Part shown: positions 9,762 through 10,841 of the stretch, one piece after another | Numbering within the stretch: the stretch's first letter is position 1 | How the letters are laid out: each line of letters opens with the position of its first letter | Assembly (NCBI RefSeq): GCF_055900595.2 | Contig: NZ_CM148325.1 | Reading direction: 5' to 3' (one strand) | DNA: 64,000 nt | Program-made: the position numbers and the translations under genes | Notes under the pieces: model-generated | What the model was told of the DNA's origin: nothing | Databases searched by the model: none | The model's input: the letters and a program-made list of their open reading frames with translations, nothing else

Positions 9762-10841
9762 ATGGCGTTACCTTTCATTATTTTGGGTGTGGCTGCCGGC
9801 GCTGCGGCATTCGGCGGAAAAAAAGCTTACGATGGATATCAAAAAAAGTCAGAAGCAGAGGATATCCTCGAAAAAGCAAAAGAGCGTTACGAGGAGCATA
9901 AAGGAAAATTTGAGCAGTCTGAAGCTCAGACATCATCAAAATTAACAACGCTCGGAAATAAAGAGCTTGAGATTGGTAAAGATTTCAGTGAGTTCGACAG
10001 GATTGCTGCTGAGCTCCTGGCGCGTCTGGAAAAAGAGGGCAATAAAGATCTGAAACTGAGTGTCCCGCAACATAACATCAATAAGATTCAGAACCTGGCC
10101 ATTTCAGCAACAGAATATCTCAGTACGGTCGTTGCTGCCGGAGTTTCCGGGGCAGCTGCAGGTTTTGCTGTGTATAGCGGAGTGATGGCATTTGCTGCGG
10201 CTTCCACAGGTACACCCATTGCAGCGCTTTCTGGTGCCGCGGCTTATAACGCGACGATGGCGGCAATTGGTGGGGGCTCACTGGCTGCAGGGGGCATGGG
10301 AATGGCTGGTGGCGCAATGGTATTAGGCACTGCAGTGGCTGCACCGTTGATTGCCATTGCGGGCTGGGCTTACGACAGACATGCGACGAAAGCTCTTGAA
10401 AATGCCCATCAGTGTGCCTGCGATGTTGAACGGGCAGTTAAGAAAATGAATCTGGCCCGGGAGCATTTTGCAAAAGTTAATCAATACGTTGATGAAATTC
10501 TCGCTGCACTGAACAGAATGCATGCTGTATTTATTAAACACTATTTTGAGCCGCTTAAATCCATGCATTCTGTTATTACAGCACAACAGGATATCAGTGT
10601 ATCAGATGAAGTCATTGTGCTTATTGACCATGGATATTCACTGGCCGCTATTATGACGGATATTATTACAACGCCACTGTTTAAACCGCGGAAACAGGAA
10701 AATGGTGAGGCAGTGATAAAAGATAACGTAATTGAAATGGAAACGGATGATAATGGAATGAATGTTATTAATAAGGAAGAGCTGGATGATGTACTGGCCA
10801 GTTCGGTTGTGAAATTTGATGATTTTTCATCCCGGAGTTAA
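9762..10841 (+). CDS. Membrane protein with N-terminal hydrophobic anchor, coiled-coil segment and long Gly/Ala-rich (glycine-zipper-like) hydrophobic region; function unknown
   Basis: 359-aa ORF preceded by strong RBS (ACAGGAGGAAAAGA-ATG); residues about 113-200 are almost entirely G/A/S/small hydrophobics (…AAGVSGAAAGFAVYSGVMAFAAASTG…GGMGMAGGAMVLGTAVAAP…); first gene of the operon downstream of the WYL regulator. Confidence 0.7.
   Translation: MALPFIILGVAAGAAAFGGKKAYDGYQKKSEAEDILEKAKERYEEHKGKFEQSEAQTSSKLTTLGNKELEIGKDFSEFDRIAAELLARLEKEGNKDLKLSVPQHNINKIQNLAISATEYLSTVVAAGVSGAAAGFAVYSGVMAFAAASTGTPIAALSGAAAYNATMAAIGGGSLAAGGMGMAGGAMVLGTAVAAPLIAIAGWAYDRHATKALENAHQCACDVERAVKKMNLAREHFAKVNQYVDEILAALNRMHAVFIKHYFEPLKSMHSVITAQQDISVSDEVIVLIDHGYSLAAIMTDIITTPLFKPRKQENGEAVIKDNVIEMETDDNGMNVINKEELDDVLASSVVKFDDFSSRS

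Follow-up and report, generated by a model that had tools for sequence, protein, structure and literature searches.

We propose that gene A, at positions 9762 to 10841 of a 64,000-nucleotide stretch of DNA (the window; NCBI RefSeq assembly GCF_055900595.2, contig NZ_CM148325.1), encodes the membrane-active core of a mobile cassette under WYL regulation (a WYL gene and genes A, B, and C) that would most likely serve in defense against phages or mobile elements. Judging from sequence, gene order, and predicted structure, we put the probability of this reading at about one-half. The parts of the cassette on which the argument draws, with lengths in amino acids (aa), are as follows.

8817 to 9713, plus strand: WYL-type transcriptional regulator (HTH_11-WYL-WCX), 298 aa, 48 bp upstream of A
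9762 to 10841, plus strand: gene A (PADLOC candidate family PDC-M09A), an ATG-start open reading frame (ORF) of 359 aa
9762 to 9818, plus strand: residues 1 to 19 of A, the hydrophobic N terminus MALPFIILGVAAGAAAFGG, followed by KK; mean Kyte-Doolittle value, 1.89
10116 to 10373, plus strand: residues 119 to 204 of A, an uncharged Gly/Ala/Ser-rich segment of 86 residues with zero D, E, K, or R
10849 to 10866, plus strand: GC-rich stem-loop CCGGGC-GTTTAA-GCCCGG between the A stop codon and B
10888 to 12459, plus strand: gene B (PADLOC candidate family PDC-M40B, E value of 4.6e-42), 523 aa
10993 to 11367, plus strand: residues ~36 to 160 of B, a putative HNH-like (His-Me finger) nuclease core, from invariant residues and the model
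11575 to 12456, plus strand: residues ~230 to 523 of B, an all-helical C-terminal module with hydrophobic Gly-rich helices and a coiled coil
12456 to 12722, plus strand: gene C, a CxxCxxCC (YkgJ-family) cysteine-cluster protein of 88 aa, from its motif, Pfam, and RefSeq name

A first-pass annotation, made from the letters of the window, had taken A to be a glycine-zipper membrane protein encoded by the first gene of a module. The 359-aa product was borne out by the ORF, by a Shine-Dalgarno sequence (AGGAGG) just upstream of the ATG, and by a RefSeq coding sequence (WP_001696575.1, "hypothetical protein") in identical DNA of Escherichia coli O150:H6 FEX669. Positions 8700 to 12800, which hold the cassette, are likewise identical in E. 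coli APEC O2-211. The layout described for the protein was also recovered. The hydrophobic N terminus is followed by a charged helical stretch (residues 21 to 100, with 8 to 10 charged residues per 20), the Gly/Ala/Ser stretch of about 85 residues corresponds to the 86-residue uncharged run, and beyond this run the protein is charged and helical again, forming the C-terminal helical part of about 160 residues. Gly and Ala make up 51% of the run, and residues 120 to 206 (n = 87) comprise 28 Ala, 16 Gly, and 6 Ser. In 20,000 shuffles of the full-length sequence, an uncharged run of at least 60 residues never occurred.

The glycine zipper itself was recovered in part. The repeated GxxxG/AxxxA spacing did not exceed what the composition predicts, with 28 small-xxx-small pairs in the Gly/Ala region versus 27.8 in 5,000 shuffles of the region (a fraction of 0.56 of the shuffles gave at least as many), a longest i+4 chain of small residues of 7 versus 6.8, and only two strict GxxxG pairs. 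What stood was one conserved (G/A/S)xxxGxxxG motif, A176-G180-G184, in which, across an alignment of 48 sequences reaching down to 25% identity, both glycines are invariant and the consensus has Ala at residue 176. Besides G180 and G184, the alignment has just three invariant columns, G170, G171, and G177, and the majority of the near-invariant columns lie within residues 147 to 201, with M1, P4, and G18 at the N terminus also among them. What sets A apart is the charge-free run with its invariant glycines, not GxxxG/AxxxA periodicity.

These features are kept across a large family. Homologs of A number 2,937 representatives (clusters at 50% identity) at an E value of 1e-3 or lower and 1,655 at 1e-10 or lower, and they are found in Proteobacteria, Firmicutes, Cyanobacteria, Helicobacter, plasmids, and jumbo phages. 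Proteobacterial members share the N-terminal motif M-P-L-P-F-I-L...G-x-K-K-G with those of Firmicutes, Helicobacter, and Cyanobacteria. In 131 relatives the longest uncharged run had a median of 86 aa and a Gly+Ala+Ser fraction of 0.58, its mean Kyte-Doolittle value was 1.18, and its best 19-residue window had a median of 1.96; a window in the central stretch passed the Kyte-Doolittle threshold in 92% of them. Some relatives carry an added classical C-terminal membrane anchor. Others have N-terminal expansions of 100 to 150 residues (relatives with extensions or anchors are P0162, P0171, P0260, P0184, and P0178); we considered whether these extensions are fused TerB domains and rejected this, as they are low-complexity sequences of Ala, Gly, Thr, and Val. 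As judged by eye, P0260 also has a C-terminal extension with a zinc ribbon and a DNA-ligase-like region.

To judge from the profile searches, PDC-M09A is the sole real family assignment for A (E value of 5.4e-22, residues 29 to 300 on profile positions 7 to 278 of 282). No significant match was found in Pfam, including its Gly-zipper families, or in NCBIfam or PHROGs, and only 4 of the 48 aligned members gave weak matches to the plant family DUF677. Public entries name A "chemotaxis protein" and B "cobalamin adenosyltransferase" or "ATP--cob(I)alamin adenosyltransferase"; neither "chemotaxis protein" nor "cobalamin adenosyltransferase" was supported in any profile search made. The link to pore-forming bacteriocins suggested by the first-pass annotation, like one to pore-forming toxins, came down to analogy: Foldseek comparison with ClyA/SmhB pores gave nonsignificant E values of 0.4 to 0.65 with TM-scores of <0.3, and phmmer comparison with the hydrophobic head of SmhB was likewise nonsignificant (E value of 0.48). 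Separately, the A profile weakly matched influenza HA2 and paramyxovirus F (E values of 0.06 to 0.2; A residues 18 to 90 and 182 to 257) over the fusion peptide and the long helix that follows it. This resemblance reflects composition and architecture and does not speak for homology.

An AlphaFold2 model of A was built with the 48-sequence alignment (predicted local distance difference test score [pLDDT] of 77, predicted template modeling score of 0.76). It contains helices at residues 5 to 91, 103 to 126, 199 to 275, 281 to 303, and 338 to 358 and a confidently modeled nonhelical insert at residues 304 to 337; pLDDT fell below 50 at residues 1 to 11. Helices from both flanks of the hydrophobic stretch pack into one bundle, so that neither flank could lie across a membrane from the other. 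With 19-residue windows and a cutoff of 1.6, Kyte-Doolittle analysis picked out residues 1 to 19 and 179 to 204, and the KK pair after the N-terminal segment fits an anchor with the N terminus out and the C terminus in, from the positive-inside rule. No positively charged signal-peptide n-region and no other secretion signal was found in A. The first-pass annotation had named localization as a soluble or secreted protein and a match to a housekeeping envelope family as outcomes that would speak against it, and our searches of A returned neither a secretion signal nor such a family.

The arrangement of genes around A was then compared across taxa. One genome per species was scanned, giving 80 loci, and neighbors were counted in the 55 loci that had 2.5 kb or more of flanking sequence on each side, using profiles built from the same loci. 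A partner carrying a B-type C-terminal module lay beside A in 50 of the 55 loci, a CxxCxxCC gene (C) in 43, an HNH-type B in 35, a WYL gene in 33, and a TerB-like gene in 11. In loci where A shared 40% or more identity with the query, the order A-B-C was always kept if the contig was long enough; this held across alpha-, beta-, and gammaproteobacteria, and a WYL gene usually lay upstream. In V. cholerae a TerB-like gene separates the WYL gene from A, and C is present though missed by the gene caller. This synteny, with the module-bearing partner, agrees with the earlier proposal that A and B work as a pair. The proposal that A is the first gene of the module needs qualification: in the window it is preceded by the WYL/HTH regulator, and it is first only in the conserved core, as in the Zymomonas and phage loci.

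In more distant loci, where A is 29 to 37% identical, A is joined to other proteins of 366 to 552 residues, several of which match PDC-M09B. The C-terminal 250 residues of these partners are homologous to one another and to the C-terminal module of B. Hidden Markov models of the partner module cross-matched B-family members with E values down to 1.8e-12, and hhalign aligned M09B-type C termini with the B family over 214 columns (probability of 89%, E value of 2.3e-6). The N termini of the partners vary, carrying an HNH motif, a D...(E/Q)xK motif, an NCENFVNWC motif, or none; judged by eye, the second would be restriction-endonuclease-like, of the PD-(D/E)xK kind, and the third papain/LRAT-like. 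In several loci the partner is merely 130 to 143 aa long and matches the coiled-coil part of the module, with no enzyme domain, and in some loci A is accompanied by just a coiled-coil partner of 130 aa, besides C and a TerB-like gene. The strongest argument at hand for a complex of A and its partner is that A and the adaptor module stay constant while the enzyme domain joined to the module varies.

Two further loci differ in layout. In a Succinivibrionaceae metagenome-assembled genome (locus L066, 739 to 4348), four ORFs of ~94 to 102 aa each match the hydrophobic part of the partner module, and two A homologs are present. In Helicobacter pylori HP12002 (locus L073, 1413 to 2982), an A homolog (29% identity) is followed by a CxxCxxCC gene, and a 266-aa module-bearing protein is encoded upstream.

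The E. coli partner, B, matches PDC-M40B only and does not match the PDC-M09B profile. In 33 B sequences, D110, H111, N140, N149, and K152 are invariant, and the model places strands at residues 107 to 111 and 141 to 145 and a helix at residues 146 to 152, with pLDDT of >90. The B sequence NLDHIISAK...SNLAFT...LNKSKRAD can be aligned with the SpCas9 sequence DVDHIVPQS...IDNKVLT...KNRGKSD, and the nine-residue spacing of the two asparagines agrees. B is therefore likely to be an HNH-type nuclease. Its C-terminal module contains three marginally hydrophobic Gly-rich helices (residues 312 to 332, 368 to 396, and 402 to 422) and ends in a conserved LPFExGN..S.R.WL motif; no signal peptide and no clear membrane anchor were found in B. 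The first-pass description of the downstream gene as an HNH protein with Gly-rich helices like those of A thus held for the motif and for the presence of such helices. A paralogous origin of A and the B C-terminal module, as in bipartite pore-forming toxins, was rejected as unsupported, since the hhalign probability was 34% and realignment left 20 aligned columns; homology of the Gly-rich helices of the two proteins was likewise not supported.

The upstream regulator matched Pfam WYL (E value of 1.6e-7), WCX (1.3e-6), and HTH_11 (0.0019) and the PADLOC WYL profile (9e-21). Gene C, which shares its first 4 nt with the end of B, has the motif C9-N-Q-C12-G-A-C15-C16 and a weak match to Pfam CxxCxxCC (PF03692; independent E value of 0.0011, residues 8 to 65).

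The intergenic region between A and B folds with an RNAfold energy of -15.4 kcal/mol. The 60 nt after the A stop codon were also folded for 41 distinct A-B junctions of other taxa (loci L007 to L052). The energy was -12 kcal/mol or lower in 35 of the 41 (median of -18.4 versus -12.6 in control windows inside A), and the z-score against shuffles was -2 or lower in 27; 13 junctions have a T-run like that of an intrinsic terminator. The structure of the hairpin is kept across taxa and its sequence is not. The conserved hairpin would keep A in excess of B, which would suit a scaffold that oligomerizes or an inhibitor, and it probably either sets this ratio or stabilizes the A transcript. A consensus scan for promoters and terminators over positions 8300 to 13300 gave fewer promoter-like sites than shuffled sequence and did not list the A-B hairpin.

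The cassette is often found among defense genes. In V. cholerae it adjoins BrxR with BREX or Wadjet; in Morganellaceae it lies between Kiwa and BrxR/type I restriction-modification (RM)/GmrSD genes or, in an alternative setting, amid type I RM genes, a PvuRts1I-like gene, ArdA, and an integrase; and in Pseudomonas it adjoins a STAND ATPase. In Serratia it is a clean four-gene insertion amid housekeeping genes. Plasmid copies number 40, 25 of them in Klebsiella, with the gene content of the cassette examined in one IncFIB Klebsiella plasmid. The jumbo Aeromonas phages LAh10, D3, D6, and D9 (four distinct phages in seven records) carry A and B only, without the WYL gene and without C. In these ~260-kb phages of Aeromonas hydrophila the A homolog adjoins a full-length B homolog with DH...N...N intact (LAh10 locus L092, 3941 to 6537), and the two are annotated "chemotaxis protein" and "cobalamin adenosyltransferase." In E. 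coli the cassette is present in 444 of 5,426 complete genomes (8%) and is chromosomal in every case in the collection. This distribution is as expected for a mobile conflict or defense module and not for an envelope housekeeping gene or a secreted toxin.

In the window, the cassette lies in an island whose boundary and cargo are listed here.

6966 to 7340, minus strand: H-NS/StpA-like gene, island cargo
7593 to 8396: outer-membrane beta-barrel protein, island cargo
13125 to 14798: phosphoethanolamine transferase of the EptA/CptA kind, below all curated cutoffs
14942 to 15985, minus strand: TPR protein, island cargo
16447 to 17889, minus strand: island boundary by annotation, a tyrosine integrase (16447 to 17667) and tRNA-Phe (17814 to 17889)

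A small ORF at 12862 to 13059 on the plus strand, just 3' of C, encodes a very hydrophobic peptide (…LVWLVIGFGMELFF…GLGMLFLMIMIAGGMCG…), named a hypothetical protein in RefSeq.

From these patterns we infer a membrane localization for A, physical contact between A and B, a trigger, and a function in defense, and the cassette might work as follows. A would be anchored on the cytoplasmic side of the inner membrane through its hydrophobic N terminus together with an even number of Gly/Ala-rich helices dipping into the membrane, and its N- and C-terminal long helices would form one cytoplasmic bundle. There it would bind the hydrophobic/coiled-coil module at the C terminus of its partner, so that in E. 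coli the putative HNH-type nuclease B would be tethered and restrained at the membrane by A. Infection would switch the complex on, by derepression through the WYL regulator and/or by a signal passing through the cysteine-cluster protein C, and the outcome would be cutting of DNA near the envelope, loss of membrane integrity, or both.

Tentatively, and with less confidence, this proposal can be extended to the whole family, which might represent an undescribed and widespread class of defense systems. A would then be a conditionally inserting platform that recruits and activates interchangeable effectors through one C-terminal adaptor, possibly an HNH nuclease, a PD-(D/E)xK-like nuclease, or a papain/LRAT-like hydrolase. 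Such a platform might destroy DNA at the site where it enters through the membrane or, where there is no enzyme, permeabilize the membrane, with the cysteine-cluster protein as a trigger or as a redox or metal sensor.

Several observations weigh against a membrane-active defense subunit. Translocon-scale sums were +2.3 to +5.3 kcal/mol for all segments of A (approximate values, without position terms), and Wimley-White sums, likewise without position terms, were -3.4 for residues 186 to 204, -1.6 for residues 1 to 19, and -0.5 to +4.6 elsewhere. The pLDDT of A was also <50 over residues 127 to 201, and comparison with the PDB by sequence, profile, and fold gave no significant relative. The nuclease assignment of B is graded no higher than likely because it depends on the motif and on nonsignificant fold matches: the top three Foldseek hits in the PDB were Cas9 HNH domains, with probabilities of 0.63 to 0.89 and E values of 0.58 to 0.9, and Pfam HNH families were significant in none of the 33 B members, B itself giving only GmrSD_C at an independent E value of 0.18. 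The reuse of the counted loci in building the profiles lessens the weight of the neighbor counts, and the Zymomonas and Serratia cassettes, among housekeeping genes, show that the island context is not universal. The PDC systems in PADLOC have the status of unvalidated candidates, and two others gave no defense when tested (PMC12409345).

With regard to the membrane, the evidence is therefore mixed. The first-pass description of A as a membrane protein holds as far as the Kyte-Doolittle cutoff is concerned, and it is put in doubt by the translocon-scale sums and the low model confidence. The segments of A appear to be marginally hydrophobic and membrane active, like those of conditionally inserting pore formers or fusion peptides, rather than clear-cut constitutive transmembrane helices, and insertion of A into the membrane is plausible.

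The same evidence could be read to mean that A is itself the killing effector, a conditionally inserting alpha-helical pore former of the kind seen in ClyA or in colicin pore domains, acting by abortive infection, with the partner module as its lock or trigger and the nuclease as an optional second effector. A would then be made as a soluble or peripheral protein whose Gly/Ala-rich helices, when triggered, enter the cell's own inner membrane. In the enzyme-less loci with the 130-aa partner, C, and the TerB-like gene, A is the only candidate effector, and marginal hydrophobicity with low AlphaFold confidence is typical of segments that insert after a conformational change. The likeness to the SmhB head, to ClyA/SmhB pores, and to viral fusion-peptide-plus-helix regions points the same way, but it is weak and nonsignificant, and no pore-forming family is significantly similar to A. 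With its KK pair, the hydrophobic motif at the N terminus, which is strictly conserved, resembles a constitutive anchor; a classical anchor is also present at the C terminus of some members, and the excess of A over its partner predicted from the hairpin would be odd for a toxin that the partner restrains. We regard a pore-forming A as unlikely, though it is the leading alternative.

A second alternative gives A no role at the membrane. A would be a soluble cytoplasmic helical bundle whose Gly/Ala stretch serves in oligomerization or partner binding, and it would act as an antitoxin-like inhibitor or a sensor of the B nuclease in a toxin-antitoxin or abortive-infection pair. The hairpin suits this idea, since the upstream gene would be the more abundant, as in antitoxin-toxin operons, and the translocon-scale sums are positive throughout. 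Small-residue helix packing also occurs in soluble assemblies, and B has similar helices yet has neither a signal peptide nor a clear membrane anchor. An 86-residue charge-free run is, however, very unusual inside a soluble protein, and the hydrophobic motif beginning at residue 1 is conserved across phyla. Membrane anchors have been added in some members, and A persists in loci that hold no nuclease to neutralize. These points make a soluble A quite improbable in our estimation.

It is very improbable that A has nothing to do with immunity and that mobile elements carry it by chance, as a protein of envelope maintenance or stress or as a toxin or virulence factor of the pathogenicity-island type that is exported: such a role would suit the tRNA-Phe island of avian-pathogenic and other E. 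coli, with its outer-membrane protein, H-NS-like gene, and phosphoethanolamine transferase, and the TerB-like gene (of a tellurite-stress family) found with A in some taxa, but A has no signal-peptide n-region, no secretion genes adjoin the cassette, a nuclease-type partner and a WYL regulator are closely tied to A, the distribution is patchy (8% of E. coli), the cassette occurs in nonpathogens, plasmids, and jumbo phages, and its neighbors are BREX, Wadjet, Kiwa, and RM genes.

We return, then, to A as a membrane-active core subunit of a defense cassette. The cassette is a catalogued but unvalidated candidate. PDC-M09, PDC-M40, the RefSeq accessions, and a description of the cassette were all absent from the literature searched, and the accessions were not in the DefensePredictor supplements (PMC13092281); among other PDC candidates that have been tested, some were positive and some negative. 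The link made here between two PADLOC candidates through a shared partner module likewise appears not to have been described in the literature searched. Should the cassette prove to act in immunity, the known repertoire would gain a large family (~2,900 clusters at 50% identity) whose core protein has no domain in Pfam. The exchange of N-terminal enzymes on a constant C-terminal module lends itself directly to testing the coupling of effectors to a membrane-associated partner, and two misleading database names, those of A and B, are corrected.

Compared with known proteins, A resembles glycine-zipper membrane peptides and proteins in its composition and its one conserved (G/A/S)xxxGxxxG motif; it differs in having no Pfam Gly-zipper match and no i+4 periodicity above chance for its composition. 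Glycine zippers also appear in the CoCoNuT paper, in an unrelated context. With class I viral fusion peptides A shares a Gly/Ala-rich hydrophobic stretch followed by a long helix, a match of composition and not of homology. Members of the ClyA family, including XaxAB and SmhABC, are elongated bundles of ~300 to 370 residues with a hydrophobic Gly/Ala-rich head between long helices, and like A they are encoded beside a partner with hydrophobic helices. However, the similarity is nonsignificant, A has no toxin match in Pfam or NCBIfam, nothing suggests that A is secreted, and its partner carries a putative nuclease domain.

Zorya type II (ZorAB with the HNH protein ZorE) and Kiwa (KwaA with KwaB) each combine a membrane-embedded sensor with a DNA-targeting effector. 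The proposed logic of the A cassette is similar, in that a membrane-associated helical protein with long cytoplasmic helices would act with a nuclease or DNA-binding effector encoded in defense islands, and Kiwa is a genomic neighbor of the cassette in Morganellaceae. The cassette differs in that A is unrelated in sequence to either system, with no PADLOC match to ZorA, ZorB, or KwaA and no channel domain of the MotA/ExbB type, and in that the partner itself carries hydrophobic helices.

Juk (JukA/JukB) pairs a conserved component with alternative effectors of the HNH or PD-(D/E)xK type and with WYL genes (bioRxiv 10.1101/2022.09.17.508391), and the A cassette is like it in having WYL genes and one constant component with exchanged effectors. 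JukA, however, is a Cbp3/YaaW-like cytoplasmic protein to which A is unrelated, and no such gene lies at the A locus; identification of the cassette as Juk, considered from a text match to WYL, TerB, and HNH, was rejected because it is a different system. The closest counterparts are the PADLOC candidates themselves. A of E. coli fits PDC-M09A and B fits PDC-M40B, while distant A homologs pair with M09B-type proteins, so that the E. coli cassette mixes components of both candidates and adds to them the CxxCxxCC and WYL genes.

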